A DNA stretch of 40,715 nt from a virus (Duplodnaviria; Heunggongvirae; Uroviricota; Caudoviricetes): IMG/VR virus record IMGVR_UViG_2851933302_000004; one strand, written 5' to 3'. The notes under the pieces are model-generated. The model was given only the letters and a program-made list of their open reading frames with translations, was not told where the DNA came from and made no database searches. Position numbers and translations under genes: made by a program. Positions 6,618 to 35,548 of this stretch are shown piece by piece (position 1 is the stretch's first letter; every line of letters begins with the position of its first letter).

Positions 6618-6632
6618 TTACCTTTCAGGTAA
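6618..6632. promoter_or_regulatory. Operator-like palindrome TTACC-N5-GGTAA (copy 1) in the divergent region between tailspike and the LexA-box gene
   Basis: ATTACCTTTCAGGTAAT perfect inverted repeat; same motif recurs at 11 other positions. Confidence 0.5.
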
Positions 6633-6669
6633 TTTGCAAAACGTGCTGGATAGCAAACAAATTATTTGC

Positions 6670-6689
6670 TACTGTATAAATATACAGTT
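6670..6689 (+). promoter_or_regulatory. LexA (SOS) box 20 bp upstream of a small antirepressor-like gene
   Basis: TACTGTATAAATATACAGTT, CTGT-N8-ACAG with AT-rich spacer, matches about 18 of 20 positions of the E. coli LexA consensus. Confidence 0.7.
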
Positions 6690-6708
6690 ATTGCATGGAG
6701 AAGATAAG

Positions 6709-6966
6709 ATGCAGCAGTATCACTATCCACTGGAAGACGGATTTACCGAAAGGATTCACACGCCGGGAGGCGTCAGGTCACTGGTGGAGGGATCGCACTT
6801 GATGAAATTACTCCGGGATCTCGATAAGGATGGATTTAATGTCGATGGCCCACTTGCCGAACTGACTGCACTGATTAACTACGTCACCAGCTCACAGATG
6901 TCTATGCAGGATCTGCAAACACATCTCGACTATTGTGCCGAACAATTACGAAAACAAACCCGGTAA
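6709..6966 (+). CDS. Small SOS-regulated protein, candidate antirepressor; shares a domain with the C-terminus of the Bro-N protein at 8352..9047
   Basis: ORF 6586..6966 trimmed to ATG 6709 (GGAGAAG RBS); LexA box immediately upstream; about 50 percent identity to the C-terminal 75 aa of the 231-aa Bro-N protein (LMKLLRDLDKDGFNVDGPLAELT vs LMNLLNQLQEDGHDVSGAAAELT). Confidence 0.5.
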   Translation: MQQYHYPLEDGFTERIHTPGGVRSLVEGSHLMKLLRDLDKDGFNVDGPLAELTALINYVTSSQMSMQDLQTHLDYCAEQLRKQTR

Positions 6967-6973
6967 ATTTAAA

Positions 6974-6989
6974 GGCCGCAAGAGCGGCC
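6974..6989. terminator. Hairpin between convergent genes (GGCCGC-AAGA-GCGGCC), likely terminator for the minus-strand two-gene module
   Basis: Perfect 6-bp stem between stop codons at 6966 and 6991; T-rich on minus-strand side. Confidence 0.4.
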
Positions 6990-6990
6990 A

Positions 6991-7497
6991 TTAACAGTCG
7001 TAAAATTCCGGGTCCCACAAACTTGCATCGCGCGGCATGGATTCTAAATTTTTCAGCCGCAAAATTCTGTCACACTCGACAAGAAGTTTTTGTTTTTGTT
7101 CGTCAATTTCTACTTTTTTGTGTGCTGGCTCATCCCAGTAATCCAGAAGAAACGCATGTCGCTCAGACGTTACAAGATAAATCACATACACATCACTGGT
7201 TGGTATTTTTTTATGCTTGTTGGTGGTCTTGTCTTTCTTCCCGGATGCCCAGTTTTTCCAGCATTGTTCCGTACCGCTCTCACCAAACTTGTCAGTATAG
7301 TTTCCGATGTTTACGTGAACGTGGCGTATGTGATATTCCAGCATCTCTTTCGGTGGATCCCGAAACAGAGTGTCCTTTCCGAAATCCTTATGATGACCGT
7401 AGCGCCAGTGATCTATGAACGCGTTTTTGATAGGTATTAGCTCAGGGTCCTTCCCAAAAATTCCAGGGTGAACCAACCCCTGGAATTTATTCAGCAT
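6991..7497 (-). CDS. YafO-like toxin domain protein (candidate type II toxin or abortive-infection effector), AT-rich cargo
   Basis: ORF trimmed to ATG 7497; motifs FGKDTLFRD and HIRHVHVNIGN resemble the YafO family core (recalled); overlaps upstream gene by 11 bp. Confidence 0.4.
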   Translation of the reverse strand: MLNKFQGLVHPGIFGKDPELIPIKNAFIDHWRYGHHKDFGKDTLFRDPPKEMLEYHIRHVHVNIGNYTDKFGESGTEQCWKNWASGKKDKTTNKHKKIPTSDVYVIYLVTSERHAFLLDYWDEPAHKKVEIDEQKQKLLVECDRILRLKNLESMPRDASLWDPEFYDC

Positions 7498-7906
7498 CGT
7501 CGTAGAGCTCCTGAGCCATATCTTCGGCAGTGCGTGCAAACATCCTGCGCGAGATTGCATGAGATTTCTCGACGGACATCTTTGGGACCTCATGCATAAC
7601 ATTTTTGGGAGTTGTGTAATAGCCTATTACAATTTTCACACCTGACTTATGATTAATATCAGCATAATATACTTCTTGTTCAGACGTTTCACGACGAACA
7701 TAATCTGCCAGTTTTCCACATTTAAATTCCCCTCCCTGATGTTTTAAAATCTCCTCAACTGCACTATTTTCAGTGAAATACCGAATAAGAAATTTCTGTC
7801 CAGACTCTTCAGCATGAGGTATAACAGTATTATTGGAAGCCCGAACAATGGCCTTACTCAATATTTCATGGTCTTTATTTTTTTCTGATTTCCTCAAATG
7901 CTGCAT
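7487..7906 (-). CDS. Hypothetical protein with acidic C-terminal tail, upstream partner of the YafO-like gene (candidate antitoxin)
   Basis: ORF trimmed to ATG 7906; AT-rich; stop overlaps start of downstream gene. Confidence 0.4.
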   Translation of the reverse strand: MQHLRKSEKNKDHEILSKAIVRASNNTVIPHAEESGQKFLIRYFTENSAVEEILKHQGGEFKCGKLADYVRRETSEQEVYYADINHKSGVKIVIGYYTTPKNVMHEVPKMSVEKSHAISRRMFARTAEDMAQELYDDAE

Positions 7907-8067
7907 TACTGTAGCTCTCTTCGTGTTCACGGGCACCCCCAACTACCTCTAGGGTAAACATTCTATCGAAAGTATACGCATACTGGCAAAAAAATAGGCA
8001 GGTATTTTCTGAAATGGGATCAATCAAACCACATAGGGTTGAAATAACGTGAGTTATGCATTTATTA

Positions 8068-8082
8068 TTACCTTTGCGGTAA
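8068..8082. promoter_or_regulatory. Operator-like palindrome TTACC-N5-GGTAA (copy 2) about 270 bp upstream of the Bro-N gene
   Basis: TTACCTTTGCGGTAA; preceded by AACCACATAGG motif at 8027..8037. Confidence 0.45.
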
Positions 8083-8174
8083 ATTTACATCGCACTCCTC
8101 TTGTGCCATAGTAATCGGGCACTGGAAAAATCCAGTGCCGGGATTGGCGTCCCGGATTACTAAAAGGCGCATTC

Positions 8175-8196
8175 ACCGCGCAAGCGGTTTTTTTAT
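8175..8196 (+). terminator. Intrinsic terminator inside the 5-prime leader of the Bro-N gene (attenuator or end of a small RNA)
   Basis: ACCGC-GCAA-GCGGT hairpin followed by TTTTTTT. Confidence 0.5.
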
Positions 8197-8351
8197 GCGT
8201 ATAGCACGGCCACATTCGTATTATGGTGGGCTGTGTGGGGGCACCGAAAGGTGCGCCGGGTCCTTTTAGCCGGTTACGCCAACCCTGCACAGTTCACCAC
8301 CAACCGATTGGCGTCGGTAGTGGTGATTAACCAGACTAAAAGGTAACCACT

Positions 8352-9047
8352 ATGACAGCTACAAAAAGCACGTCCATTTTTTCTTTCGAATCCCAAGCCG
8401 ATATACGGGTAATCGTCATTAATGGTGAGCCATGGTTTATCGCTTCAGATGTTTGTCGGGCTATAGGCATAGCAAATCATCGAGATGCTGTTCGAAAACT
8501 TGATGATGATGAGAAGGGCGTCGCTTCAACCGACACCCCTGGCGGTGAGCAAGAATCGATCATCATCTCCGAGTCAGGCCTCTACACACTGATCCTCCGC
8601 TGCCGCGACGCAGTGACACCAGGCACTATCCCCTACCGCTTTCGTAAATGGGTTACAGGTGAGGTTCTTCCTCAGATCCGCCGCACCGGAAGTTACATTA
8701 AAAACTCGCTCCCGCAGGAAGAACGCATAAAGATGGTTGCCGACCAGGTAGCCAACGCCACAGCATCAGCAGTGATGCAGGCAATGAAGATAGAGAACAA
8801 AACCTACAGTGCCCCACTGAAGCCCGGCTACCGCAGCCTGATTCATTCGCCGTCTGGTGTTCTCGGCCTGACGGAGAACTCACTGCTGATGAATCTGCTG
8901 AACCAGTTACAGGAAGACGGGCACGACGTATCGGGCGCGGCGGCGGAGCTGACCACCATGTTCTGCTACATCGTCGGTGTGAGCAAGTGCCTGCGTGATA
9001 TCCAGACGCACGCGGAGTACATCAACGACAAGGCTGGGTTCTTCTGA
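8352..9047 (+). CDS. Bro-N domain protein with C-terminal antirepressor-like domain
   Basis: N-terminus FSFESQADIRVIVINGEPWFIASDVCRAIG is a classic Bro-N signature; C-terminus paralogous to the 85-aa SOS-regulated protein. Confidence 0.7.
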   Translation: MTATKSTSIFSFESQADIRVIVINGEPWFIASDVCRAIGIANHRDAVRKLDDDEKGVASTDTPGGEQESIIISESGLYTLILRCRDAVTPGTIPYRFRKWVTGEVLPQIRRTGSYIKNSLPQEERIKMVADQVANATASAVMQAMKIENKTYSAPLKPGYRSLIHSPSGVLGLTENSLLMNLLNQLQEDGHDVSGAAAELTTMFCYIVGVSKCLRDIQTHAEYINDKAGFF

Positions 9048-9113
9048 CGGGCGGCGGCACATGGATGTGCCTTTAAAATAATCATTGGCGATGTGATGTA
9101 GATTCGCGTAATA

Positions 9114-9128
9114 TTACCTTACGGGTAA
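9114..9128. promoter_or_regulatory. Operator-like palindrome TTACC-N5-GGTAA (copy 3) 60 bp upstream of the 210-aa gene
   Basis: TTACCTTACGGGTAA. Confidence 0.45.
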
Positions 9129-9187
9129 GAAAGCGTTTTTAATCTTCCCTTCAAAACGCGTCCTGTAGCCAAACATGGGAGGACGAA

Positions 9188-9820
9188 ATGAAAACAAATA
9201 CAACAAGAAAAGCGATGCCATACATTATCCCAGAAGCAGATTTCGACAGAAAACTGAACATGTCTGAGAAGAACACTAGTCACACCGAAAGCTACTTAGC
9301 GAAAGGTGTGGTTGATTTCGTTCTTCCGGGATTCACAACACCTTATGGTTATCGCCTTGTAAAATCTTGTAATGGCGATCATTACAGAATGATTACTACC
9401 AGCGATACTCCAGAAACGGTGTATGCGGTTAAGTTAATCTTTCGGGAAGATATCGTCGAAGCTAAAAGAACATGTACGCAGATCATGGTATGGCGTACGC
9501 CTAATGTTATTCATGACCGTGCTGTTCATGGTTTGCCTCAGATTTTTTTTCAGTTCTTCCTAGAGCAATATGCGATCGTTGTATCTGATGAGCAACAAAC
9601 AATCGATGGGAGAAGATTCTGGGAAAGAATGATTTCTTGGGCTATAAACACCCCGGGATATAATGTATACGTTTCAGATGGCTCTGAAGAAGATAGACCT
9701 CTTAGCTTCATGACATCATGGGATGATTTCTATAGCCAGTGGGCTGATTTCTGTTGGGGCAGTGATAAAGATGTGCATACCCACAGACTACTGGTTATAA
9801 GCAAAGATAAACTGCATTAA
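9188..9820 (+). CDS. Hypothetical cargo protein, 210 aa, function unknown
   Basis: ORF with GGGAGG RBS; operator copy upstream and strong terminator downstream; no recognisable family. Confidence 0.5.
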   Translation: MKTNTTRKAMPYIIPEADFDRKLNMSEKNTSHTESYLAKGVVDFVLPGFTTPYGYRLVKSCNGDHYRMITTSDTPETVYAVKLIFREDIVEAKRTCTQIMVWRTPNVIHDRAVHGLPQIFFQFFLEQYAIVVSDEQQTIDGRRFWERMISWAINTPGYNVYVSDGSEEDRPLSFMTSWDDFYSQWADFCWGSDKDVHTHRLLVISKDKLH

Positions 9821-9825
9821 TAGAA

Positions 9826-9846
9826 GCCCGCAGCGCGGGCTTTTTT
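9826..9846 (+). terminator. Rho-independent terminator after the 210-aa gene
   Basis: GCCCGC-AGC-GCGGGC hairpin followed by TTTTTT. Confidence 0.65.
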
Positions 9847-9918
9847 GTGGACGAAACAAAAGTCAGTGCTACACTCATTGACGCCACATTGAGGTGGCTT
9901 ATAGATGGAAATTTCACA

Positions 9919-10080
9919 ATGAAAAAAGCATTTGCTGCACTGTTCGTTTTGTTGTCTCTGGTAGCTTCAACTCAGGCCTTTGCCGGTCGTTGTCAGCACG
10001 ACAGCGATACTGCTGCTGACGGCTCCCGCTGCGGTGGGCGTTCTGCGGATTCCCGCCCGGGTGGCGGTGGCATTCGTTAA
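9919..10080 (+). CDS. Small secreted Cys/Gly-rich peptide (about 53 aa), hypothetical
   Basis: ORF 9847..10080 trimmed to internal ATG giving signal peptide MKKAFAALFVLLSLVASTQAFA; weak RBS. Confidence 0.3.
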   Translation: MKKAFAALFVLLSLVASTQAFAGRCQHDSDTAADGSRCGGRSADSRPGGGGIR

Positions 10081-10086
10081 AAACAA

Positions 10087-10102
10087 GGCCGCGAAAGCGG
10101 CC
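10087..10102. terminator. Bidirectional terminator hairpin between convergent genes
   Basis: GGCCGC-GAAA-GCGGCC with T-rich flanks on both strands. Confidence 0.5.
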
Positions 10103-10109
10103 TGTTTGA

Positions 10110-10961
10110 TCACTGTGCAGTTTTCGCTGATCGATTTTCAGCTCTAAATTCAAGAACCGTTTCAATATTTCTTTCCTTCAGCATATCAATAACATTTTTA
10201 TTCATTTGACTATCACTGGTTAATAACTGGTAAACGTTGCTTCTCTCTTTATCAGAGTTTTCTTTAACAGCTGCTTTGCATGCCAAATGCTTATTGAAAT
10301 TTTCTACATCGCTAGTACAGGAATTTACGGCTGCTGATGAAATATCAGACGCTGAAGAAACACCATCATCCAAACGTTTTATAGCATTTTCTATACATGA
10401 GTTAAGGGAATAAACGACAACTGAGCGATACCCTTCAGACGCACACCATTCTAAATTTCTTGAAGGATCGAGTGGTTTTACTTCGCTGGATTGAATTAAC
10501 TTGTCAAAAACTGACTTATATTCAATCTGTTTTTTATCTATAGCCCATACTTCAGTAGCTGATTTATAATTCCCCGTATGCCTATTAACATCAAATCCAT
10601 GTTTTATAAGCAAATCTGCCCATGAAAGATTTATTGATTCATTGTTATGAGGCCATTTTCCTGTCAGAACCGCCCCCATAGACCCCATATATCCGCCATA
10701 TGATGGTATAGCACCATGGCTCAGTAACTTCTCAGCAACCACAGGGCAATTAATTACATAAGAGGCGTAAAGCCCATTCCATAAAGCCCCTCTATAGTAA
10801 TCGCCACGATTAGGTTCTTTTAAGTCGATAGCCTTTGATAATTGTTCACACGTTTTGCATGCATCAAAGTTATCCTTATTGCATTGCAATGAACTGGCAG
10901 CTGTAGGATTTACAGAGACTATTGAAAGCACTATGCCAAAAAACAAATTTATTTTTTTCAT
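10110..10961 (-). CDS. AT-rich secreted protein, 283 aa, possibly ankyrin-like repeats; moron at the distal end of the virion operon
   Basis: Signal peptide MKKINLFFGIVLSIVSVNPTAASS; codon composition visibly more AT-rich than neighbours; LLSHGA / LLIKHGFDVN segments are ankyrin-like. Confidence 0.55.
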   Translation of the reverse strand: MKKINLFFGIVLSIVSVNPTAASSLQCNKDNFDACKTCEQLSKAIDLKEPNRGDYYRGALWNGLYASYVINCPVVAEKLLSHGAIPSYGGYMGSMGAVLTGKWPHNNESINLSWADLLIKHGFDVNRHTGNYKSATEVWAIDKKQIEYKSVFDKLIQSSEVKPLDPSRNLEWCASEGYRSVVVYSLNSCIENAIKRLDDGVSSASDISSAAVNSCTSDVENFNKHLACKAAVKENSDKERSNVYQLLTSDSQMNKNVIDMLKERNIETVLEFRAENRSAKTAQ

Positions 10962-10962
10962 C

Positions 10963-13900
10963 CTATTTCATCTGCTCTTCAACTTTATTTAGTAACGGTG
11001 ATATTGCCCACAGGTTCTGAAAAGGTAGCATTTTACGGACCGCGTGGGTTTGCTGGCTGTCAAATTCTCCGTTAAGTACACCATTCGCAACCGTCGCGGC
11101 ATCACCGCCAAGATCAAAGGTAGGACCAAGTAAAGCACCAATAGCATTACGACTCTGAAACCTTGATACCGGAGGCGCACCAAACATCGCGCCAAGACCA
11201 AACCTACCGCCGCTTATGTTCTCAACGGTATTCAGCGGCTCAGAGAGCCAGCCAAGCATTCCGCCCCGGTCGATCCCCTCTTTCACAAGGTTATTCCAGC
11301 TGTAGTCAATATCGCGACCGCTTAACTTCTGTTTCATCATATAGACCATTGAGCCAAGCGCAATCGTGCCAAGCGCACCAAGATAGAATGCAGCATCGCC
11401 CTGCTGGATACCAGATACCAGCACCCTGTTATGCTGTGCGAAGATAAACGTTTTGAACTGCGTGATCATCTTCCAGCCTTCTTTACTAAAAAACAGCGGT
11501 GTATCACCTACGCCAGGCGTTACAATCACTGAGTCTACATCTTTCAGCACTGCAGACTGGAAAATCTCTCTAGCGAAACGGTCATCCCACAGATGACTAT
11601 GCCCGGTTAACAGCCCGTCCATATCCTCTCCGTGCTTCCCGAATTGCTCCCCGATTCGGCGCAGAACATCTTCATTGATGCCGACCTGTGCCATCTTCCG
11701 CATTTCACTTTTGGAGAGCGTGCCACCAGCAGAAACTTGGCGAGCCGCGTCAAGTATCCTCGACTGCACTATCATCCCGGACCATGATTTAAGTGCGCTG
11801 TTCCACTGATTCATCAGCGTCCAGTTACCGAATTTCTGCGTCATCCAGTTCAGGCCTCGCTCAGCGGCGCTTCTCCGGCTATATGGGTCAGTAAGATCCG
11901 CTATAGCCTTTGTACGCGTAGACAGGACATAATCAAGCCCAACGGCCATTTCTCGCAAATCCCTGGTTGCAATTTTCACTGAGTCCATATTTTTAAGCAT
12001 GCTTACCATTGGTCCGAGAGATTTTCTCAGGCCATGCTGCATCATCGGTCGCATCAGATCAGTTGCAGCGGAGACAGTCATTCCACCAAGCAAACGGAGG
12101 AAGTTAATATTCCTAGCAACTCGCCCGGCACGAACAAAGAAACTGCGTGGATCTTGAGGTGCACCGTAAGTACCAAGCAGTCGATCACGCATAGCCGTAA
12201 TATCCCTAATATCAGCCTCCCGTTGCTTCTCAAGAACTGCACGTCGTTTAGGCGTTTTAGCCTCTTTTATTAGCCGGGTATATTCCTCACTAACCTGACG
12301 GATTTGCTCCCCCATATCTTTACGGCCAAACTGCGCAGTCAGCTCAATTTCTGGTGCCACCTGCCGGAGATAACTTTCCATGATGTAGTTAACATCTGAT
12401 TCAAGAAAATCTTCTATACGCTCATCAGGAATAAGCAGCGTTCTGCTTTTAGTGAAACCAGCCCGACCAACGAGTCTCTCTGGGATAATATCGGCTGGTA
12501 CAAGCCCGGAAGGTGCACCTATTATTTTATTCACGATCTCGTCAGCAGCGTCCTCTGCTTCCTCTCGGGATAGAGGCTCCATCTGCTTCAGTGCTCGTTC
12601 GCGGCTTGCATTCAGCCTTGTGGTTGAATTTGCCCGTTTTTGCAGTCGGCGAAGCTCAGAACGATATTTCCGTGGATTATCCAGCAACTCCATATGGCGC
12701 TGATAGACAGGAAGCTCACTCTTTGCCTGCGCTATATCATCAAGGCGTGTTTTAAGGTCAGAGCTTTCTTTCATCATTCTTGCCTGAAGTTTTTCTGATG
12801 AAGTCTCGGCCAACTCTTTTTCTATTCTTGTAAGACGCGCCTGTGTGTCAGTCTCCTGAGATATAAGCTTATTTCGTTTATCCAGTTCTTCCATGAGTAG
12901 AATTTTTTTACCAGACCATTTCTCCGCTTCAGCGATTTCACTAGCGAGAGCATCAGCGCGCGGTGCCGATTCCTCTGCAGTTTTTAGCAATGAATTTATC
13001 CTTTCAATTCGCTGACCTGCCTTGTCAGCACCTTTGGCACTAATCCCTTGTATCCAGTTGGCAATTCGCCCTCTGAATTCAGTGCGGTCGGAAAGTATCT
13101 TATCGAACTTATAAATGCGGGGAAGATAACTTTTCGCCGTCACGACATCGATATCCTCAGGAAGGATCCCCAGTTCCTGCATACGGGCTTTTGTGGTCTC
13201 GAAAATGGGGCGGATTCTGGCAGCTGCTTGTGAAACCTCAGGAATATCACTCTGATCACCACGGCGCATAGCCATGCCAACAGCTTCATTGAAATCAATA
13301 AAGTTCATCCTCTTCACGCCGCGGGCGCTAACAGATTTGCTGTACTGCTGGTAAGCATCACGAGTGGCTTCCATCTGCTTATAAAGCATGGCGTCGTATT
13401 GCTTAATCTTAGTCTCGACTGCCGTAAACGTAGCCAACCCCTCATCATTTTTGGCGAAGAAATAGTTATTTTCGGCAAGCTGCTGGTTAATCTGACGGGA
13501 GACAAGAGATGGTGATTGCGCCAAGCGGCCAGCAGGAGTGACACTCAACGTTTTGTTAGCAAGTCCAAGTCCAGCGAGCTGTTCCTGATCGAGTGTGGTA
13601 TTGAAAACCTGAGCTGCACCAATGCTTTGAGGAGAATCCATACCTCGCAAATGATTACCTACTGAGTTAACCACTGCCTCGCGCGCGCCAGGTCCAGCAA
13701 GTAGCTGTGCACCAGCACCAAGGATCCCACCAACGAGAGCATCAACAACAACGTTCGATACGCTCTCCATCGGTGAGCGAGCTTCCTGAGTGGCCTGTAA
13801 TGCGGCCTCTGAAGCAACACTGCCAGCAGCATTCGCCAGGGCAAAACGCCCGGCTGTTTCTGCAATACGACCGCCACGAACGACAGCGCCGAACGGAATA

Positions 13901-23418: not shown

Positions 23419-23426
23419 TTCCTCTC

Positions 23427-26097: not shown

Positions 26098-26408
26098 TTC
26101 AATGACTCCGGTTACTGACCAAGCAGCGTTTTACCGCTGGTATTAGCGGTTGATGTGTCGCCCTGAGAACCGGTAAGCAGCGTAGAACTACGACCAGCAG
26201 CAGCGCGACGGCGACGTGTTTCTTCGTCGCGGGCATCAACAACGGCGGCATCCTGCTCCTGTGGTGCTGCCTGAACTTCTGGTGTTGCAGGCACTGATGG
26301 TGAGCTACCCATGCACATATCAATGACTCCGTACGCAATTAAATTATTACCAATTTAACCACATATGATTTATTTATCGTAGAAGGTTGACATTTAACGC
26401 GTTAATTA

Positions 26409-26423
26409 TTACCTTTCAGGTAA
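26409..26423. promoter_or_regulatory. Operator-like palindrome TTACC-N5-GGTAA (copy 4) upstream of portal, with TTGACA 16 bp away
   Basis: TTACCTTTCAGGTAA identical to copy 1; AACCACATATG at 26358..26368 also shared with copy 1 region. Confidence 0.45.
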
Positions 26424-26745
26424 CCAAAGGGCTCATTCTGGTTACTAACCTGACTGGCTTGTCGTTAAATTAAACAGGTGGAGTGAGCTTTTATTTTGAG
26501 CAGTACGGCGTATGGCACATGCGCCGATAGCGGTCTGGATACGTTTAAGGGGCACCCTCCCTTGCTCGGGCAAACGAACCAGGTAGCCGGAATGTGCAAG
26601 TCGAGCGGTTTTATTCCGCGCACGGGGATTCACCATCCCGGCGATTCGGTGTGACGCCTCGGAAGAGACGAGGGTACAACGATGAGAGCATTTATGGAGC
26701 CGCGACAAAGTGTGGCGCCTTAACAGGCTAAGTGCTCTCAGCGTT

Positions 26746-26822
26746 GTGGCATTAGCTCAGTTGGACAGAGCAACCGCCTTCTAAGCGGTTGGTCGCAGGT
26801 TCGAATCCTGCATGCCACGCCA
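26746..26822 (+). tRNA. tRNA-Arg (anticodon UCU), phage-encoded
   Basis: Cloverleaf folded by hand: 7-bp acceptor stem GTGGCAT/ATGCCAC, D-arm GCTC/GAGC, anticodon stem ACCGC/GCGGT with loop CTTCTAA, T-arm GCAGG-TTCGAAT-CCTGC, encoded CCA; resembles host argU with compensatory stem changes. Confidence 0.9.
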
Positions 26823-27020
26823 GAATCACGCCTAAGGACCGTGATGCCAGAAGTTCCAGGTGCTTGGCGGTGATGGTTTCCCTTGAAGGACTATCACCGC
26901 CCTTTTTACAGCAGGACGCCATTGCGATGACTTCATGCTGTAAACCCGTACAGCCACGGAAGGCATAACTCATTGCTTCCAGTTCGCCCGGTTCGCCGGG
27001 CATTTTTTTAAGGTGAGATC

Positions 27021-27443
27021 ATGAAAACAATTGATATGTTGGCTAAGTATCTAAATGAATGGCCATTAAAATATTCTCGTATCGTTCAGGCTGAAGACTG
27101 CGTTTTTTATGGCGTTTTTGCTGGTAATGAAATGCATTACGAAGTAATTCAGAGTGAGGGACTGGCCGGGTTAACGCTTAGCGATGACCATGGAATAGGA
27201 GTTACTTGCCATGACTGGATTTCAGCGCAGAAAACTGAAATGGAAAAAGGCAATGTGTTTGATATTTCTCGCGCTGTATACGCCAAAGAAAAAAGTGATG
27301 ATGATTACATGCGCGAAAACTTATACAACATGAAGTTACAATGCCTGGCTGAAGTGCTTAGTAAAAGATCTTTACTTGATGTGGTTGGTGCTGAGCAGGA
27401 CGCCAAGGCAATCAACGCCGCATTCGATAAAATAACCTTCTAA
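27021..27443 (+). CDS. Hypothetical moron protein, 140 aa, opposite strand to late operon
   Basis: ORF with AGGTGA RBS; flanked by hairpin terminators on both sides; between terminase and portal genes. Confidence 0.5.
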   Translation: MKTIDMLAKYLNEWPLKYSRIVQAEDCVFYGVFAGNEMHYEVIQSEGLAGLTLSDDHGIGVTCHDWISAQKTEMEKGNVFDISRAVYAKEKSDDDYMRENLYNMKLQCLAEVLSKRSLLDVVGAEQDAKAINAAFDKITF

Positions 27444-27447
27444 CGCC

Positions 27448-27462
27448 GTGACATGTCACAAT
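27448..27462. repeat. Palindromic repeat CGTGACATGTCACAAT copy B, just downstream of large terminase
   Basis: Identical 16-mer also at 29663..29678; core GTGACATGTCAC is a perfect 12-bp palindrome. Confidence 0.6.
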
Positions 27463-27463
27463 C

Positions 27464-27489
27464 AGCCCGCCGATTCGCGGGCTTTTTTA
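27464..27489 (+). terminator. Rho-independent terminator after the moron gene
   Basis: AGCCCGC-CGATTC-GCGGGCT followed by TTTTTT. Confidence 0.6.
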
Positions 27490-28962: not shown

Positions 28963-29555
28963 TGATTGCCATCCTGGCGTTCTTTCAGTCTCTTCCTGGC
29001 TGCCGCTATGCGATCAGCAATTGTCACATTCACATTAACATCCAGGCGTTCTTTGAATGCGTTGACGTCGACGTGCTTACCAATCAGTTCGAGGTTCTTC
29101 ACCTTGTCAGGCCATTTAATTTTTTTGAGGATTGTCTCTATCGAATCCTCGTTCATGTTCATGATGGTCGATGACAGATCAAAGCCACTAAGCGTAGTGC
29201 GCCAGATTTTCGGCCACTCGCGGATTGGCTTAAGGCTCCCATCGTCGTTGAGGATGTCGATCACGTCCATCTGGTCGATCTCCACCAGGCGCATGAGAAC
29301 GTAATCAGCACTGACGCGCATTCGTTTGTTGCGCTCTTCCATCAGCTCGGCAATCCGTTTTTGAATGCGTTCATCGCGCATCATGAGACTGGCTTTAACT
29401 GCCGCTGTATTTGGGGAGAATCCTGCGTTAATCGCTGCCTGAGTCTGGTTTTCAGGCGTTTTGATGTATGACTGGCAATAAGCCTCCTGCATTGCTGTTA
29501 GTGGCTTAAATTGCGTTGATTTGCGTTTATAGGCTTTAGGTTCAGCAGGCATCAT
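28959..29555 (-). CDS. Terminase small subunit; start placed at internal ATG
   Basis: ORF 28959..29651 trimmed to ATG 29555 because a hairpin terminator lies at 29596..29624; protein resembles recalled terminase small subunit families. Confidence 0.55.
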   Translation of the reverse strand: MMPAEPKAYKRKSTQFKPLTAMQEAYCQSYIKTPENQTQAAINAGFSPNTAAVKASLMMRDERIQKRIAELMEERNKRMRVSADYVLMRLVEIDQMDVIDILNDDGSLKPIREWPKIWRTTLSGFDLSSTIMNMNEDSIETILKKIKWPDKVKNLELIGKHVDVNAFKERLDVNVNVTIADRIAAARKRLKERQDGNQ

Positions 29556-29595
29556 AACCACCGTGGTAATAGTTACCGTTGTGGTAATAGTACCA

Positions 29596-29624
29596 TGCAA
29601 AATAAAGCCGCCATAGTTGGCGGC
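29596..29624 (-). terminator. Intrinsic terminator in the leader of the late (terminase) operon
   Basis: Minus-strand RNA: GCCGCC-AACTAT-GGCGGC followed by UUUAUUUUG. Confidence 0.5.
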
Positions 29625-29662
29625 AGTATTCAAAACCATCAAATTCATCATGCATAACCCAC

Positions 29663-29678
29663 TCGTGACATGTCACAA
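29663..29678. repeat. Palindromic repeat CGTGACATGTCACAAT copy A, upstream of late operon leader
   Basis: Identical to 27447..27462; overlaps stop codon of the upstream Cys-rich gene. Confidence 0.6.
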
Positions 29679-30014
29679 TATTAATTTCGTTTCATGCCAG
29701 CCTTTGGTCACCCAGCATTGCGAGTCACCATTACACGGGCATGAATTCACAGGAACTCTCTCGCCGCACTTACCGCAACGTTTTCTGCTGATCGATTTTA
29801 TACGCCCGTGCACGCGAGCATCATCCTGGCGGATAAGTAACGCAATATACTCACCAAATTCGTAAGGCGCACGCCCGGGGCGACGCGTGGCACAGTTACG
29901 CTCCAGCATTTCAATTTCCTGAGCATCAAGCACAATCTCCAGTTTACGCACACCAGATGCAGCTTGTCTGGCTCTCTGAGCGGCTTTGCGCTCTGCTGCT
30001 GATTTAGCCATCAA
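29673..30014 (-). CDS. Cys-rich small protein with putative zinc-ribbon; candidate late-gene regulator by position
   Basis: 113 aa; C-terminal CGKCG..CPCNGDSQC cluster; immediately upstream of late promoter/terminator region. Confidence 0.45.
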   Translation of the reverse strand: MMAKSAAERKAAQRARQAASGVRKLEIVLDAQEIEMLERNCATRRPGRAPYEFGEYIALLIRQDDARVHGRIKSISRKRCGKCGERVPVNSCPCNGDSQCWVTKGWHETKLIL

Positions 30015-30285
30015 TATTCACCTTTATCGCGAACACCTTTACCGGTTTATCACCGAAGTGGGGATGTGTGATTGTCTTGATTTCATATCCGTCATACGGG
30101 ACGTCAATTCTGCGGCTGGAATCGTCGCGCTTCGGATATCCCTTTGTGATAATCAGGCGGTCATACTCGCGGAACATAATTCGCTTATTCCAGTAGTCAT
30201 TACACAGGCGATACTCTTCCGTTTTCTCTCCGCGAATCATGGCATCGAAGTATTCACCTTTAACGGCAAGTTGCAGGTTAGCCAC
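30004..30285 (-). CDS. Hypothetical protein
   Basis: 93 aa ORF in early-left operon. Confidence 0.45.
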   Translation of the reverse strand: MANLQLAVKGEYFDAMIRGEKTEEYRLCNDYWNKRIMFREYDRLIITKGYPKRDDSSRRIDVPYDGYEIKTITHPHFGDKPVKVFAIKVNIDG

Positions 30286-30565
30286 GACCTTCCTCCTTTG
30301 GCTTGTGAATTTGTATCGTCATGCCGCTTTGAGTGGTGACTACAACGACAGAACCAGGCTGAAGACTGTTAAGATTGAATGCTTCGTAAAACGAAGCCAA
30401 GGCCAGCGCTTTTTTATTCTTTCGGTTCCACCAACGCCATCCATTGCTACAGGCTACACTGACAATCCACTGTCCACTCCTGTAAGCCATATAAAACCAG
30501 ATGAGCAAAACCTGAATGAATGCTATCCAGTCAATAATCGTATATTTCGCGAAGGAGACCATCAA
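30278..30565 (-). CDS. Hypothetical small membrane protein
   Basis: 95 aa with hydrophobic N-terminal half. Confidence 0.4.
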   Translation of the reverse strand: MMVSFAKYTIIDWIAFIQVLLIWFYMAYRSGQWIVSVACSNGWRWWNRKNKKALALASFYEAFNLNSLQPGSVVVVTTQSGMTIQIHKPKEEGRG

Positions 30566-31134
30566 TTAACCTCCTGCGGCGGTTCCGGTAGAGGCATCCA
30601 GTACAAGGCGTTCCCTAACCACGATAAAGTGCCGTCGCTCAACTCCACGTATTCCCCTTGTACCTGTCCTGCCATATACTCGCCGTGCTTTGAATAAATT
30701 AAAATCCAATCATCTTGAGCGGGCATTCGCTCACTACAGCTTATCCAACCATCCGGAGTTACCGGATAGTTGCCCGACAGCTCGTTCAACTTGTAAGTTT
30801 GGCTTACAGGTTCGGCTTCCAGTTCTGCAATGCGCTTCTCTGCAGCTTCCAGCTCAACGCGCAGCTTCCCTACCGTTAGCGCAATTTCCTCGTTCTCCTG
30901 GTCGCGGCGTTTGATGTATTGCTGGTTTCTTTCCCGTTCATCCAGCAGCGCCAGCACGGTTTCTGGTCCGGTCAGAAATTTGAAGGCGTTGAGCGCATCA
31001 ATATCCACACCGTAATCCTTAAGTTCCTGTTCACTTAACAAATCATCATCAACTGGCAACATTAACAGGCGTTCCATTGCCGGAATTGCACGTTCTGCCG
31101 CCTCACGCAGTGCCTGATAGTTAATTTTGGTCAT
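30562..31134 (-). CDS. Hypothetical protein with coiled-coil and C-terminal DUF551-like region
   Basis: ORF trimmed to internal ATG 31134 (MTKINYQ) with GGGGA RBS; C-terminal DGW..WMPLPEPP pattern recalled from DUF551. Confidence 0.45.
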   Translation of the reverse strand: MTKINYQALREAAERAIPAMERLLMLPVDDDLLSEQELKDYGVDIDALNAFKFLTGPETVLALLDERERNQQYIKRRDQENEEIALTVGKLRVELEAAEKRIAELEAEPVSQTYKLNELSGNYPVTPDGWISCSERMPAQDDWILIYSKHGEYMAGQVQGEYVELSDGTLSWLGNALYWMPLPEPPQEVN

Positions 31135-31160
31135 ATCACATCCCCCTGAAGCCGTTGCAT

Positions 31161-31436
31161 TTACGTAAAAAAATCGCAGATATAGCCCTTCATTTTTTCG
31201 TGCCAATCTCGATCATTCCCATTGCACCAACCATCAGGTGGAGTCCAGTTTTCTATCAGAGCAGCCATTTTCTTTGCTTTCGCCGGAGTAGCTGTTGCGG
31301 TATCGCAGTAATGACGAGTGTCAACCAACGTATCCATACCATCGATATCAAGTACGCAAAACCATGTGTGATTCGGCATTTCAACAGATGGTATTTGTTG
31401 CCCACGTCGACGTTTATCAATAAGACATACAGTCAC
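31161..31436 (-). CDS. Hypothetical protein
   Basis: 91 aa ORF, coupled to upstream gene. Confidence 0.4.
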   Translation of the reverse strand: MTVCLIDKRRRGQQIPSVEMPNHTWFCVLDIDGMDTLVDTRHYCDTATATPAKAKKMAALIENWTPPDGWCNGNDRDWHEKMKGYICDFFT

Positions 31437-31954
31437 TGGTTGCCTCCTTTGCGAAGCTGGGCAGCAAAGTCAACTAACCACTCAGTCATTTCAACCTTCC
31501 CTACCAGGTCTGAACCAGGGTGCATACAGCAATCACTCTGCGCCGCTTTGAAATCCTTATACTCATATTCTTGGGCCACCAGATTTTTTGCAGCTTCTAT
31601 AGCAGCATCCACCCCCTGCGCCCGTACTTCAGCCAAGAAAGCGTCGGTGGCTGTGGTTTCGATATCGTTAATTTCAGGAAGAATCTCTTCCCATGTAGCG
31701 ATATCGCCATTCAAATGCCATCCGGCAATTCCACTGGAGTTATCCGCAACACTGCGAACGGCTTCAATAGTTTCATGCATTGCCTCATTCTCCGCTGCCA
31801 GCGCATTAGCACGCACCAGTTGCACTTCCAGTTGCGTTGCCAAATCGCTGATCAGCTTTGCCACACTGCGCATATCAACGGCACCACATTCTGCTTTCAG
31901 TTCCGAAGCCATCTCATGCCCGGCGGCAACTAACCCTTTGATATTACTTTCCAT
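31433..31954 (-). CDS. Hypothetical protein
   Basis: 173 aa acidic helical protein. Confidence 0.45.
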   Translation of the reverse strand: MESNIKGLVAAGHEMASELKAECGAVDMRSVAKLISDLATQLEVQLVRANALAAENEAMHETIEAVRSVADNSSGIAGWHLNGDIATWEEILPEINDIETTATDAFLAEVRAQGVDAAIEAAKNLVAQEYEYKDFKAAQSDCCMHPGSDLVGKVEMTEWLVDFAAQLRKGGNQ

Positions 31955-32015
31955 CTTTACCCTCGCTTATCCACATAACTTATTGATTACATTGATAACT
32001 AAAAAGATCGTCGAT

Positions 32016-32363
32016 TCAGAACTCTTCGATGTTCCAGCCACCACCTGCTTTCTTTGGCTTAACCGTTACCCCGATGATTCGGAACGGATACTGATCTGCG
32101 GCGACTTTGGTTTTCACTCTGGCGTCATCGGTCCAGAATCCCCCTTTCACTTCGTGCAGTTCCATCTCGCCGGTGGCGAGCATCACAGCAAAATCTGGCG
32201 TATAGAACGTGTTGTCAGCTAACCGCAGCTTGATACCCTCAAATCGATACCAGACGATTTCTCCTGCACGTTTACGCAGCTCAAGGTGCTGGCAATACGC
32301 AGATTCTGTTTTGTTCATCTGGCCTGTTTTGAGTCGACCAAGAGCCTGCATCTGTTTTCTCAT
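32016..32363 (-). CDS. PD-(D/E)XK-type nuclease-like protein
   Basis: 115 aa; TPDFAVM and ELHEVKGG fit a PD..(D/E)XK motif; operator copy overlaps its RBS. Confidence 0.45.
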   Translation of the reverse strand: MRKQMQALGRLKTGQMNKTESAYCQHLELRKRAGEIVWYRFEGIKLRLADNTFYTPDFAVMLATGEMELHEVKGGFWTDDARVKTKVAADQYPFRIIGVTVKPKKAGGGWNIEEF

Positions 32364-32366
32364 GAT

Positions 32367-32381
32367 TTACCCCTTAGGTAA
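32367..32381. promoter_or_regulatory. Operator-like palindrome TTACC-N5-GGTAA (copy 5) overlapping the RBS of the nuclease-like gene
   Basis: TTACCCCTTAGGTAA 3 nt from the start codon; AACCACATAAG at 32387..32397. Confidence 0.45.
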
Positions 32382-32428
32382 TTAAAAACCACATAAGACA
32401 CGAAATCAATAGATTTTAGAATATTTTA

Positions 32429-32443
32429 TTACCTCTAAGGTAA
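32429..32443. promoter_or_regulatory. Operator-like palindrome TTACC-N5-GGTAA (copy 6)
   Basis: TTACCTCTAAGGTAA in the intergenic region downstream of the P-like gene. Confidence 0.45.
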
Positions 32444-32480
32444 TTATCGAGACGTAAAAAAATGCGCTATCGCGCTGGTA

Positions 32481-33281
32481 TTACTTGATAAATCCTGACG
32501 CCTTTCCCCGCCTGTATTCCTCCATCAGCCACTGCGCCGGTGTTATTCCCCCAAGGGTGGCGGCGTTAGGCATGCACCCGAAACTTCGCCCTGGTGGATG
32601 GTAAACGTCTCTCCCTGTGTCCGGAGGCGTACTCATGGGTTCTGGCTTTGCCTGTATGCTGATCACCGGATCGGGTATCTGCTGTCCGGAAGCCACCTTT
32701 TTCGCCCAATCATCGAGCAGCCTGCGCGCGTGTTTCTCAACCTCAATCTCGCTAAGCTGGCGCTGATACATTGCACGGCGGGTATCACATACGACCCAGT
32801 ACATAACCGGATGTCGCCACGGGAATCTTTCGGGACCACCAGGATATAAACTTTTTTCCTTGCTGTACCGGTGAAACTCCGCCATCACATCGTCAATGGT
32901 GACGCCAAGAACCATCTTGCTGTCTTTACACCACTTGATGAATTGCCCTGGCGACGGCCAGAACGGAGACTCACTGGCGCGGGCGTGGCGCATACCAGCA
33001 GAAACCTGTTCACGGGTTCGGATCCCCCCTTCGGCAAACGCAGCAATCCACTGCTGTTTTGCAGCAACTTCCTGCTCTGGCGTCTTCAGGTTGGTTACCA
33101 CTGCCGCCGGAAACAGTTGTTTCAGCTGTTTGAAAAGGGCATCAACAAGCCTCTCTGCTGACATGTTCACCACGTTGTCATTGTTGGTGTACTGATGCTC
33201 ATAACCTGACATGCGAGAAAGGGCTTCTCCGTCACGGTTTTGTATCGCGGTAAAAACGTTGTTCACAAGAAATCCTCCCAT
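32481..33281 (-). CDS. Replication protein P-like (replicative helicase loader)
   Basis: 266 aa; strong similarity to recalled lambda P (LFPAAVV..QQWIAAFAEGGIRTREQV..PFWPSPGQFIKWC). Confidence 0.8.
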   Translation of the reverse strand: MGGFLVNNVFTAIQNRDGEALSRMSGYEHQYTNNDNVVNMSAERLVDALFKQLKQLFPAAVVTNLKTPEQEVAAKQQWIAAFAEGGIRTREQVSAGMRHARASESPFWPSPGQFIKWCKDSKMVLGVTIDDVMAEFHRYSKEKSLYPGGPERFPWRHPVMYWVVCDTRRAMYQRQLSEIEVEKHARRLLDDWAKKVASGQQIPDPVISIQAKPEPMSTPPDTGRDVYHPPGRSFGCMPNAATLGGITPAQWLMEEYRRGKASGFIK

Positions 33282-34078
33282 GCTTCAGGGCTGTTCCAGT
33301 GCGGAACGTTGTTATCAGGTAATGTTGATTGCTTCTGTCTGCTAATCTGCAGCCGCCTTGCCAGCTTCTGCTCCCACTGTGCCTGATGGTATGCCTTACC
33401 CTCAGCCATCCAGTAAATTCTGAACTCTGCAAGTTCCTGTGCCGTTGGCAGACTGTCCAGGCAGATCCCCTGCAATGAGCTTTTCCGAAGAAAGTCATCT
33501 GATGGCTGCCATTGTTCATGCATGACAAATTTGCCTAATTGCCCTGGCCCACCAGGAGGAACAAAGTTATTCATCACGGCGTTGTTTGCGCCGGGGTCAT
33601 GATGCACAGAATCCCCGTTTTTTGTCCTGCTCTCCCTCTCTTGGTTAAATGACTGGTTATATGACTGGTTCTGGATCCCGTTTTTGGGATCATTCAACAT
33701 CCCGTTTTTGGGATCATTCAACATCCCGTTTTTGGGTATATTCCCGTTTTCGGTAACATTACCGTTTTCGGGTTCATTGCCCCCCTCTCGGTTGCCTTTA
33801 ATGTTCCCGTTTTTGGTTATATTAAGAGAGAAAACCCGCACTCTTTTTGTCGCTCCCTTTCTCTCCCCGGTATCTGAAATAAGCCCCATTTTCATGAGCG
33901 ATATAAGTCCGGCCTGCACGGTTTTTTTATTCAGGCAAGTGTCTTTAACGAGGCGTTCTATGCTGGGGTAGCAGAGGTTATATTCATCGGCTCTGTCAGC
34001 CATCGAGAGCAGTATGAGCTTTAATGACGAGCTACCTGGATCTGTCTCCCAGGCCCAATCTGTTGCATGTCTGCTCAT
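33263..34078 (-). CDS. Replication initiator, lambda O-like, with origin iterons inside the gene
   Basis: 271 aa; N-terminal HTH-like region, central Asn/Gly repeat (PKNGMLND x2) encoded by iterons, C-terminal domain; directly upstream of P-like gene. Confidence 0.7.
   Translation of the reverse strand: MSRHATDWAWETDPGSSSLKLILLSMADRADEYNLCYPSIERLVKDTCLNKKTVQAGLISLMKMGLISDTGERKGATKRVRVFSLNITKNGNIKGNREGGNEPENGNVTENGNIPKNGMLNDPKNGMLNDPKNGIQNQSYNQSFNQERESRTKNGDSVHHDPGANNAVMNNFVPPGGPGQLGKFVMHEQWQPSDDFLRKSSLQGICLDSLPTAQELAEFRIYWMAEGKAYHQAQWEQKLARRLQISRQKQSTLPDNNVPHWNSPEAWEDFL
33677..33824. repeat. Origin-like iteron array: two perfect 24-bp tandem repeats plus about four degenerate copies of CCCGTTTT(T/C)GG
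   Basis: CCCGTTTTTGGGATCATTCAACAT at 33677..33700 and 33701..33724, then degenerate copies through 33824. Confidence 0.7.
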
Positions 34079-34093
34079 GATTAATCTCCGCTA

Positions 34094-34294
34094 TCAGCTT
34101 GAATGTTGTGGGGAGGAATTAATCATGATCTGCTTAATCTCTGCCCTGATACGACGGTTTGATTCCATGGTGCACTCAACACAGTGTCCGTTGTAAACCC
34201 AGCGTTCACTGTCATGTCCGTGCTTACATGTTTTTCCGGTGTAGTAGCGTTTAAGTCCGCGCTTTGCGGCATCAATACGTGTAATGATTTCCAT
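34094..34294 (-). CDS. Small zinc-finger protein in the cII position
   Basis: ORF trimmed to ATG 34294; CKHGH..CVEC cluster; between Cro-like and O genes. Confidence 0.4.
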   Translation of the reverse strand: MEIITRIDAAKRGLKRYYTGKTCKHGHDSERWVYNGHCVECTMESNRRIRAEIKQIMINSSPQHSS

Positions 34295-34374
34295 GGTAAG
34301 CCCTGTTATTAGTATTGGGATTACGGTCATTTTGTGCTGACACAAAAAAAAGATCAACCAGATTTGGTTTTTTA

Positions 34375-34389
34375 TTACCTTTGAGGTAC
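34375..34389. promoter_or_regulatory. Operator-like palindrome (copy 7, one half-site mismatch)
   Basis: TTACCTTTGAGGTAC followed by GAATAGATAT also seen next to copy 1. Confidence 0.35.
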
Positions 34390-34444
34390 GAATAGATATG
34401 AAAAGACCGCCGGATGGCGGTCTACAGAGGGTTGTGGCTGGATA

Positions 34445-34675
34445 TCATGAGTAGAAGAAGTATGCCAATTCTGCTTTTGAGCGCAGCCATTGTCTTGTTT
34501 TACAGGCTTTAAAAAGCCCATTCATCAATACCTTACCTGGCATTTTGCGCTTACCTGTTAAGTGAGTCTGGATATAGTGACTCGTCGTTCCGGCTTCCTG
34601 TGCGAAGGCTTCACGCTCATCCGGAGTAAGTGCAAGCCAGTGCTTTTTGAAATCGAAATGTCCGTTATCGCTCAT
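34445..34675 (-). CDS. Cro-like small HTH regulator
   Basis: 76 aa; divergent from repressor gene; first gene of leftward early operon; HTH-like segment. Confidence 0.55.
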   Translation of the reverse strand: MSDNGHFDFKKHWLALTPDEREAFAQEAGTTSHYIQTHLTGKRKMPGKVLMNGLFKACKTRQWLRSKAELAYFFYS

Positions 34676-34711
34676 AGCTATTGCCTGATATTTATTTCAG
34701 ATAATAAATAT

Positions 34712-34774
34712 TCACCCATAAGGTAACAAAAATCAAGGATAGTTACCTGTGGGGTGCATTTACCTGTTGGGTAA
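34712..34774. promoter_or_regulatory. Immunity-region operator cluster: three TTACC-N5-GGTAA-type sites in the repressor/cro divergent region
   Basis: TCACCCATAAGGTAA (34712..34726), TTACCTGTGGGGTGC (34743..34757, weak), TTACCTGTTGGGTAA (34760..34774). Confidence 0.55.
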
Positions 34775-34829
34775 TATTGCTTTAAATTGAATCATCTACT
34801 GATTCATATACGAGGCGATTTTCCAGAAA

Positions 34830-35414
34830 ATGAAAAGTATCCAGGACGTCCGCAGGCAAAATCTCAACGACTTGATCGACCGTGAATTCAATGGTGTTCA
34901 GACGCGGATGGCAGAAAAACTTGGAACTCAGGCAAATCTGGTAAACCGCTGGGCTCTTGGCAAGAAGGTTATCGGCGACCAGGTTGCGCGAAAAATTGAA
35001 GCTGCCGCCAATAAACCCCGTAACTGGCTTGATATCGATCGCTCGCTTTCTCAGGAAGGTTTTCAGCCTGTCGGCCCAAGCGACATTGGCCAGCTGGCGG
35101 CTCACAACCTGGAACGCTGGATGAGCGAAAGCCGCGACCTTTCAACACAGGGAAAACTTCACCGCGCATCCGGCGTCGCCCAGGTGACAATCAGCCGCCT
35201 GTTAAACAATGAGGTCAGCGTTTCCATTTCCACCCTGGAGAATGTTGCATCCGCATTCGGGCGTCACGGCTATGAATTACTGATTCACCCGCACGACCCT
35301 GCGACCATCAACTATGACCGCTCGCGCTACGCATTGTTACCCGAAACCGAGAAAGCAAAGATCGAAAGTTACATTGAATTTGTCATCAACCAGAACGAAA
35401 AAAACAAACAATAA
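34830..35414 (+). CDS. Prophage repressor with two HTH-like segments and no recognisable LexA-type autocleavage domain
   Basis: 194 aa; divergent from cro-like gene across operator cluster; no Ala-Gly or Ser-Lys peptidase segment seen. Confidence 0.6.
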   Translation: MKSIQDVRRQNLNDLIDREFNGVQTRMAEKLGTQANLVNRWALGKKVIGDQVARKIEAAANKPRNWLDIDRSLSQEGFQPVGPSDIGQLAAHNLERWMSESRDLSTQGKLHRASGVAQVTISRLLNNEVSVSISTLENVASAFGRHGYELLIHPHDPATINYDRSRYALLPETEKAKIESYIEFVINQNEKNKQ

Positions 35415-35434
35415 AATCATATTTTTCAGTAAGT

Positions 35435-35458
35435 AAGCCGCCTTCTGGCGGCTTTTTT
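35435..35458 (+). terminator. Rho-independent terminator after the repressor gene
   Basis: AAGCCGCC-TTCT-GGCGGCTT followed by TTTTTT. Confidence 0.7.
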
Positions 35459-35471
35459 ATTGCCTATGCTA

Positions 35472-35548
35472 TTACCTAATGGGTAATTTTTTTAACTCAT
35501 ATCTATTGACATCAAACCAAATACGCATAATTATTACCTCAACGGTAA
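35472..35548 (+). promoter_or_regulatory. Rightward early promoter region: TTGACA -35 box flanked by two operator palindromes
   Basis: TTACCTAATGGGTAA (35472..35486), TTGACA (35506..35511), AT-rich -10 candidates, TTACCTCAACGGTAA (35534..35548). Confidence 0.5.

Follow-up and report, generated by a model that had tools for sequence, protein, structure and literature searches.

Two features of phages related to epsilon15 (Uetakevirus) are already known: dispersed binding sites of the immunity repressor, annotated for epsilon15 itself, and a repressor-antirepressor pair, studied in phage SPC32H. Here we describe the recurring palindrome TTACC-N5-GGTAA in a prophage of this group, carried on the IMG/VR virus record IMGVR_UViG_2851933302_000004, whose 40,715 nt we refer to as the window. 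The window holds the host genes yfgH and yfgI, followed by a complete epsilon15/phiV10-like prophage that ends at the integrase gene. We suggest, with a probability of roughly 0.8, that the palindromes are operators of the immunity repressor, Rep, and form a single-repressor regulon that is released by a LexA-controlled antirepressor, Ant.

In brief, the Rep of SPC32H has three domains, which serve DNA binding (N-terminal), dimerisation (middle) and tetramerisation (C-terminal). It binds palindromic DNA as a tetramer, with DNA-binding pairs drawn from different dimers, and is disabled by the tetrameric antirepressor Ant (PMC9638917; PMC9986798). According to a paper from 2023, the structural mechanism of repression by this protein had not been extensively characterised (PMC9986798). 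The RefSeq record of epsilon15, NC_004775.2, contains seven features labelled 'protein_bind: repressor, lysogeny', and all seven read (A)TTACC-N5-GGTAAT. The regulatory genes of the window are the following.

34830-35414, + strand: Rep, 194-aa immunity repressor with an N-terminal Cro/YdaS-type helix-turn-helix (HTH) and a C-terminal HTH_3-like dimerisation and tetramerisation part
34445-34675, - strand: Cro-like protein, 76 aa, phrog_35, transcriptional repressor
6670-6689 and 6709-6966, + strand: LexA box TACTGTATAAATATACAGTT and the ant gene for an 85-aa antirepressor homologous to SPC32H Ant

The prophage shares with epsilon15 and SPC32H the genome layout, the ATTACC-N5-GGTAAT palindrome at the same places, a homologous Rep and an Ant encoded behind a LexA box. 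Rep homology, operator consensus, map positions and spacings, and the LexA-box Ant were thus all found as in the Rep-operator-Ant system of Uetakevirus. The differences lie in Rep, which is approximately 42% identical overall, and in the gene content: the window has an endosialidase tailspike, a YafO-type pair, an isrK/C4/Bro-N unit and a gene for a 210-aa protein, each accessory unit with an operator copy of its own. It has no site in front of the lysis genes, and two, not three, sites at the promoter of the early operon.

Compared with the CI/Cro system of lambda, the prophage has a similar tripartite operator between divergent repressor and cro-like genes and a second cluster at the other early promoter, and cooperative binding through higher oligomers is plausible in both. 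The RecA-cleavable S24 domain of the lambda repressor is absent from Rep, for which a Pfam scan returned HTH families only and no Peptidase_S24 domain. Operators are found at about 8-10 regions instead of two (OL and OR), and pairs set 62 bp apart on either side of a promoter take the place of the long OL-OR loop. A first-pass annotation of the window, made from the letters alone, had measured the number of sites against the lambdoid phages. This framing does not hold, as the phage is epsilon15-like; dispersed operators are already on record in that group, and the sites are therefore no departure from the norm.

Scattered operators are also found in P1, where those of the C1 regulon are spread over the genome at separate units, including the immI operon (c4 antisense RNA, icd and ant). 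The two systems have in common many dispersed operators of an immunity repressor, one of them before an operon with a C4-type RNA and an antirepressor (8068 in the window), and the analogy is functional only. The P1 sites are asymmetric, 17 bp long and read by the unrelated C1; those of the window have two-fold symmetry, would be read by an HTH pair of a tetramer, and would be vacated at induction through a small LexA-controlled Ant. Rep matches the HTH_3 and YdaS-type families; homology to C1 was not searched directly. Between the operator at 8068-8082 and the Bro-N gene (8352-9047, with a Pfam match to Bro-N) are two Rfam matches at gathering level, isrK at 8119-8194 (+, 76.7 bits) and C4 antisense RNA at 8219-8304 (+, 77.7 bits). 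This operator, isrK, C4 and Bro-N together make up a P1/P7 immI-like antisense-RNA/antirepressor module in an epsilon15-like prophage. In mycobacteriophage L5, the gp71 stoperators are asymmetric, oriented sites in transcribed regions that stop elongation; they resemble the sites of the window in being many and distributed through the genome, and differ in that those of the window are symmetric and located at promoters in intergenic DNA.

Number, placement and conservation of the palindrome

Ten exact copies of TTACC-N5-GGTAA are present in the window, starting at 6618, 8068, 9114, 26409, 29573, 32367, 32429, 34760, 35472 and 35534. Not one exact match was seen in 100 dinucleotide-preserving shuffles. 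When one mismatch was allowed, 14 sites were found against 0.58 expected. Among spacer lengths of 0 to 20, N5 alone was enriched with its 10 copies, every other spacer giving 0-1, and in a scan of all 5-mers in the form X-N5-rc(X), rc being the reverse complement, TTACC came top with 10 copies and the runner-up had 2. A weight matrix was trained on 38 sites from related phages only and is thus independent of the window. With a cut-off of 10 bits, it found 13 window sites (at least 10 bits each) against 0.42 expected, spread over 10 separate intergenic regions. The palindrome repeat is real and strongly non-random. Full-text literature searches for the motif itself gave no relevant match.

Non-coding DNA makes up 8.0% of the window according to RefSeq, and nine of the ten exact sites are located in it (binomial P ~1e-9). 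The tenth, at 29573, is inside the annotated 5' end of terS, upstream of the true terS start at 29552. This site is also intergenic, because epsilon15 terS is homologous only from the ATG at 29552 onwards and a terminator-like hairpin (29624-29607) lies within the supposed extension. The start of terS (29552-29651, -) has apparently been annotated too far upstream both in RefSeq, where it corresponds to window position 29633, and in the phiV10 record.

The sites, regarded here as predicted operators, are listed below.

6618-6632: exact copy, 25.6 bits, between the divergent tailspike (ATG 6513, -) and ant (ATG 6709, +) genes
7943-7957: one-mismatch copy CTACC..GGTAA, 12.7 bits, at the promoter-like site of the YafO-type toxin-antitoxin pair
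8068-8082: exact copy, 22.0 bits, at the promoter of the isrK / C4 antisense RNA / Bro-N unit
9114-9128: exact copy, 20.4 bits, 60 nt upstream of the gene for the 210-aa protein at 9188-9820 (phrog_1349, function unknown)
26409-26423: exact copy, 21.0 bits, before the head/portal operon (start of the first gene, 26318, -)
29555-29587: tandem copies 18 bp apart, exact at 29573 and with one mismatch at 29555, upstream of and over the ribosome-binding region of terS
32367-32443, - strand: pair 62 bp apart, 32429 distal and 32367 proximal, flanking TTGATT-17-TTTAAT upstream of the DUF1064 gene
34375-34389: one-mismatch copy, 14.8 bits, between the terminator after the cro-like gene and a gene for a 66-aa protein (34094-34294, -)
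34712-34774: tripartite region between the cro-like and repressor genes, exact at 34760, two mismatches at 34743, one mismatch at 34712
35472-35548, + strand: pair 62 bp apart, flanking TTGACA (35506-35511)-17-AATTAT (35529-35534), before the early operon that starts at 35568

The first-pass annotation had given twelve copies. Nine of these are exact, those at 34375 (GGTAC) and 34712 (TCACC) carry one mismatch each, and that at 34743 (TTACC..GGTGC) carries two, its sole support being a conserved position in the alignment. Three sites had been overlooked, one of them exact (29573) and two with one mismatch (29555 and 7943). The three sites that it placed between the repressor and cro-like genes are present as the triple at 34712-34774, the TTGACA box at 35506-35511 does lie between the sites at 35472 and 35534, and the site at the start of a nuclease gene was located correctly, since 3 nt separate the end of 32367-32381 from the DUF1064-gene ATG.

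We scanned the genomes of phiV10, epsilon15, SPC32H, Tyrion and Klebsiella phage BUCT711 for the motif. Each of these five relatives has 8-11 exact copies, at map positions equivalent to those of the window. Sites shared by all genomes compared are the terS tandem (18 bp), the head operon site, the ant/tailspike site, the early pair adjoining the end of rep, the rep/cro triple and the resolvase/DUF1064 pair. The spacings are conserved too: 62 bp for the early-promoter pair (63 in BUCT711), 17 and 30-31 bp for the rep/cro triple, and 62 bp for the resolvase/DUF1064 pair. In alignments of the six genomes, the TTACC and GGTAA half-sites and the -35 hexamer are invariant, and the 5-nt spacers and the flanks vary, a footprint-like pattern. 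Weaker copies are also found in the relatives before the lysis genes and before int; the counterpart of the int copy would fall beyond the end of the window.

Several of the counterparts coincide with annotated repressor sites of epsilon15. The site at 6618 corresponds to epsilon15 19896 (annotated repressor site), SPC32H 20013, phiV10 20877, Tyrion 21776 and BUCT711 16965, and that at 26409 to epsilon15 2932, which is likewise annotated. For the terS pair, which follows the terminator at 29624-29607, the counterparts are epsilon15 12/30 (12-27 being an annotated repressor site), phiV10 87/105 and Tyrion 67/85. A 62-bp pair is found at the place of the DUF1064-gene pair in 5/5 relatives, with epsilon15 35906-35922 annotated as a repressor site, and both members of the early-promoter pair have annotated equivalents (epsilon15 32554-32570 and 32616-32632). 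The start-to-start spacings of the rep/cro triple in the window are 17 and 31 bp, and its middle site is exact in epsilon15, SPC32H and BUCT711. The site at 8068 has a counterpart at phiV10 20497, and the one at 34375 has counterparts at phiV10 33112 and Tyrion 35365.

Most sites overlap or flank promoter-like hexamers. The two 62-bp modules share one layout, in which 19 nt separate the distal operator from an invariant TATTGA(C) -35, a 17-nt spacer leads on to the -10, and the last T of the -10 is the first T of the proximal operator. In the module at 35462-35572 the hexamers read TTGACA-17-AATTAT. In the one at 32357-32453, on the minus strand, they read TTGATT-17-TTTAAT, with 3 nt between the end of the proximal operator and the ATG. 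As 62 bp is close to six helical turns, both operators would be on one face of the helix with the core promoter between them, and a small repression loop is therefore suggested. Elsewhere, the site at 34712 occupies the space between the -35 and the -10 in the promoter that reads leftward to the cro-like gene. The first T of the site at 8068 is the last base of a -10 (TTGAAA-18-TATTAT), and its 3' end is 2 nt before a second -35. The site at 7943 covers the positions 3-17 nt downstream of the -10 in the promoter-like TTGCCA-18-TAGAAT (7989-7960, minus strand), at about +1. Before the head operon and before the tailspike gene, we estimate from conserved blocks that the operator stands at about -70, well upstream of the likely core promoter.

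A separate sequence element was seen near the late genes. CATATNNGGTT occurs four times in the window, against 0.28 expected, at 3148-3158 (-), 6578-6588 (-), 26357-26367 (-) and 6551-6561 (+); copies precede the lysis genes, the tailspike gene and the head operon. The blocks around it are invariant in the six phages; in front of the head genes they read CATATGTGGTTAAATTGGTAATAATTTAA, and in front of the tailspike CATAT..GGTT....GGTAATAGAAT. We regard the CATATNNGGTT block as separate from the operator and as a candidate for either a late-promoter or an activator element. We also considered one extended late element, ATNTGGTT-N6-GGTAAT, which would join the late-promoter block to a half-site, and rejected it, as it was not above chance. 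A second proximal operator at the late promoters was rejected as well: TGGTT-N5-GGTAA stands at exactly +62 in the case of the head operon, but at +50 in the case of the tailspike.

Rep, Ant and the competing explanations

The closest structural match to Rep is the SPC32H repressor. In a phmmer search of the PDB, residues 1-190 matched 5D50_A with an E-value of 4e-42, and 5D4Z, a fragment of SPC32H Rep whose chain contains the tetramerisation domain, aligns with the C-terminal part. The segment NLVNRW in the recognition helix of the N-terminal HTH is invariant in five Uetakevirus Reps that are 42-78% identical as whole proteins. Diverged repressors can therefore share one operator sequence. 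The phage ZX5 has a repressor identical to that of the window, and its overexpression lowered the endolysin and holin transcripts by more than 99.9% and stopped the release of free phage (PMC9782041).

More distant homologues of the Rep N-terminal domain, whose C-terminal parts are unlike that of Rep, are found in the Pseudomonas phage PseuP_224 and the Moraxella phage Mcat9. The former has TTACC-N4-GGTAA at 5921-5934 and 5962-5975, before the homologue's own gene, and the latter has degenerate TTACC-type copies clustered at 5857-5992 and 7610-7667. To judge from these sequences, the HTH family of the Rep N-terminus seems to read TTACC half-sites widely.

The product of ant is 87% identical to SPC32H Ant, which is annotated as 'anti-repressor protein' in the SPC32H record. 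TACTGTATAAATATACAGTT is a near-consensus LexA box 20 nt upstream of the ant ATG and is conserved in the six-phage alignment; for SPC32H, LexA control of ant was reportedly described by Kim and Ryu in 2013. The first-pass annotation had sites preceding both a candidate antirepressor and the Bro-N leader. The antirepressor part can be kept in a more precise form: the protein predicted to act at induction is the 85-aa Ant homologue at 6709-6966 behind the LexA box, and the Bro-N protein belongs to a separate module.

The proposal that repressor operators lie over many units gains from several sides, as the epsilon15 annotation, the conserved positions and spacings, the invariant half-sites and the overlap with promoter hexamers all agree with it. 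Site statistics, positions, conservation, promoter overlap and protein homologies were observed directly; occupancy of the sites by Rep, looping and effects on transcription are what we infer from them.

It should be noted that some observations weigh against Rep operators as the general explanation. The region in front of the lysis genes (3088-3393) has no operator copy in the window, unlike that of epsilon15, phiV10, SPC32H and Tyrion. Placement of the operator near -70, as seen before the head operon and the tailspike gene, does not in itself obstruct RNA polymerase, and terS shows no convincing sigma-70 promoter. Furthermore, the Cro-like protein is conserved more strongly than Rep (76% vs 42%).

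The last point leads to the alternative that survives best, namely that the main reader of the dispersed sites is the 76-aa Cro-like protein, by which units would be timed or shut during lytic growth, with Rep acting at the immunity region only. In lambda, the sharing of operators by repressor and Cro is the norm, and the Cro-like protein of the window may read the same sites during lytic growth too. It is 76% identical to epsilon15 gp39 and 58-84% identical across the phages that share the motif, with an invariant HTH-like AGTTSHYIQ.HLT, and its match to phrog_35 carries the description 'transcriptional repressor'. Mcat9 and PseuP_224, the distant Rep homologues of which were found with tblastn, also carry Cro-like homologues or candidates, so that the homologues of the Rep N-terminus and of Cro travel together even in the Moraxella phage. 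By sequence, Rep and the Cro-like protein are inseparable as readers, because both are conserved along with the motif and their homologues co-travel in distant phages. We looked for covariation between a divergent recognition helix and an altered palindrome among the 361 Rep relatives in IMG/VR, and the best 80 of the 361 all have a Rep that is 100% identical. Against a Cro-like protein as the main reader, the recognition segment of Rep is just as invariant, and the epsilon15 record assigns the sites to the repressor. The geometry of the paired sites suits a tetramer with two DNA-binding pairs, and overexpression of the identical Rep in ZX5 abolishes the lysis-gene transcripts (PMC9782041). 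Reading by the Cro-like protein is also compatible with reading by Rep, not exclusive of it. We consider it unlikely that the Cro-like protein is the principal reader.

A role of the sites in DNA processing (packaging, integration or recombination), for example as pac-related sites at terS or as integrase arm sites, is very improbable. One pair does adjoin terS, and in the relatives a one-mismatch copy is found upstream of int, beside annotated integrase sites. However, the motif is found at 8-10 separate promoter regions, the divergent rep/cro region included, and its fixed registration to the -35/-10 hexamers is not explained by DNA processing.

Still less credible is that a host factor recognising an ACCT-N3-AGGT-type core binds the sites, and that the phage thereby makes use of host regulation. 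Several sites (6618, 26409 and 32429) do contain TTACCT...AGGTAA, a core that presumably resembles the palindrome of MqsA, an antitoxin-type HTH protein. It is the outer TTACC/GGTAA that is invariant, whereas the inner T and A are present in some sites only, and the motif co-occurs with the Rep/Cro module in hosts of four genera.

An artefact of chance or composition, for which we found no points in favour, can be set aside given 10 exact copies against 0/100 shuffles, the unique N5 spacing, the intergenic P of ~1e-9 and the positions kept across six genomes.

Distribution of the prophage and neighbouring genes

The window represents a prophage of K1 Escherichia coli. Its immunity region matches E. 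coli IHE3034 and APEC O18 chromosomal DNA at 100% identity, and phiV10 and relatives at 98-99%; the studied copy, with its endosialidase tailspike, is found in K1 extraintestinal pathogens. We found the immunity region (window 34300-35760) in 562 of 5426 complete E. coli genomes, nearly always once per genome.

The tailspike gene (3394-6513, -) bears the RefSeq name endosialidase, and the K1 capsule is therefore the probable target of this prophage's specificity. An O-antigen acetylase gene, present in the relatives, is absent. At 6991-7989 (-), a gene for a YafO-family toxin and an upstream gene for a 147-aa protein (phrog_9503, function unknown) are likely a toxin-antitoxin cargo pair. A tRNA-Arg (anticodon TCT) is encoded at 26746-26822 (+), between the terminase genes and the head operon, a location that also holds a tRNA-Arg in SPC32H. 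The gene at 38596-39245 (+), for an MT-A70 family methyltransferase, carries a frameshift mark in the RefSeq annotation of the identical IHE3034 prophage.

The proposed regulon and its meaning

In the single-repressor regulon that we propose, the paired N-terminal HTH domains of Rep would read two half-sites 10 bp apart. The operators would be used in five arrangements: the rep/cro triple; the two 62-bp pairs that enclose a promoter; the terS tandem; single sites at accessory promoters; and single sites at the head operon and at ant/tailspike. The accessory single sites, at -10/+1, would cover the isrK/C4/Bro-N unit, the gene for the 210-aa protein and the toxin-antitoxin pair. A Rep tetramer has two DNA-binding pairs and could therefore hold two operators at once, which would cage the promoter between them in a small loop. 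In the lysogen, Rep alone would hold nearly every transcription unit off. DNA damage would remove LexA, by its cleavage, from the ant promoter, Ant would be made, and its binding to the C-terminal part of Rep would free all sites together.

A more far-reaching version is that tetrameric Rep directly gates essentially every unit, with 62-bp micro-loops at two promoters, one global derepression by Ant and a feedback through Bro-N. The gated units would then be the early, replication, terminase, head and tailspike units, the second antirepressor with its C4 RNA, and the accessory genes. The order of expression would be set by the number, strength and position of the operators, not by a classical cascade of antiterminators or activators, and the Rep-repressed Bro-N unit would act as a positive feedback that commits the switch. 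We put this version forward tentatively, and think it rather doubtful that it holds in full.

Because dispersed repressor sites of epsilon15-like phages are already on record, the gain here is one of detail rather than principle. What appears to go beyond the public annotation is the complete list of sites, with the rep/cro triple and each pair's second member, which the epsilon15 record leaves out. The conserved promoter-flanking geometry and the extra operator copies at accessory promoters also appear to be additions.

The full site map amounts to a wiring diagram for how the prophage is kept silent and how it fires after DNA damage, in a prophage type that is common. It indicates that accessory genes, namely the toxin-antitoxin pair, the Bro-N unit and the gene for the 210-aa protein, would be silenced along with the phage in the lysogen. 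The conserved 62-bp pairs could serve as a simple model of how two operators may be engaged by a tetrameric repressor whose DNA-binding domains are cross-paired.

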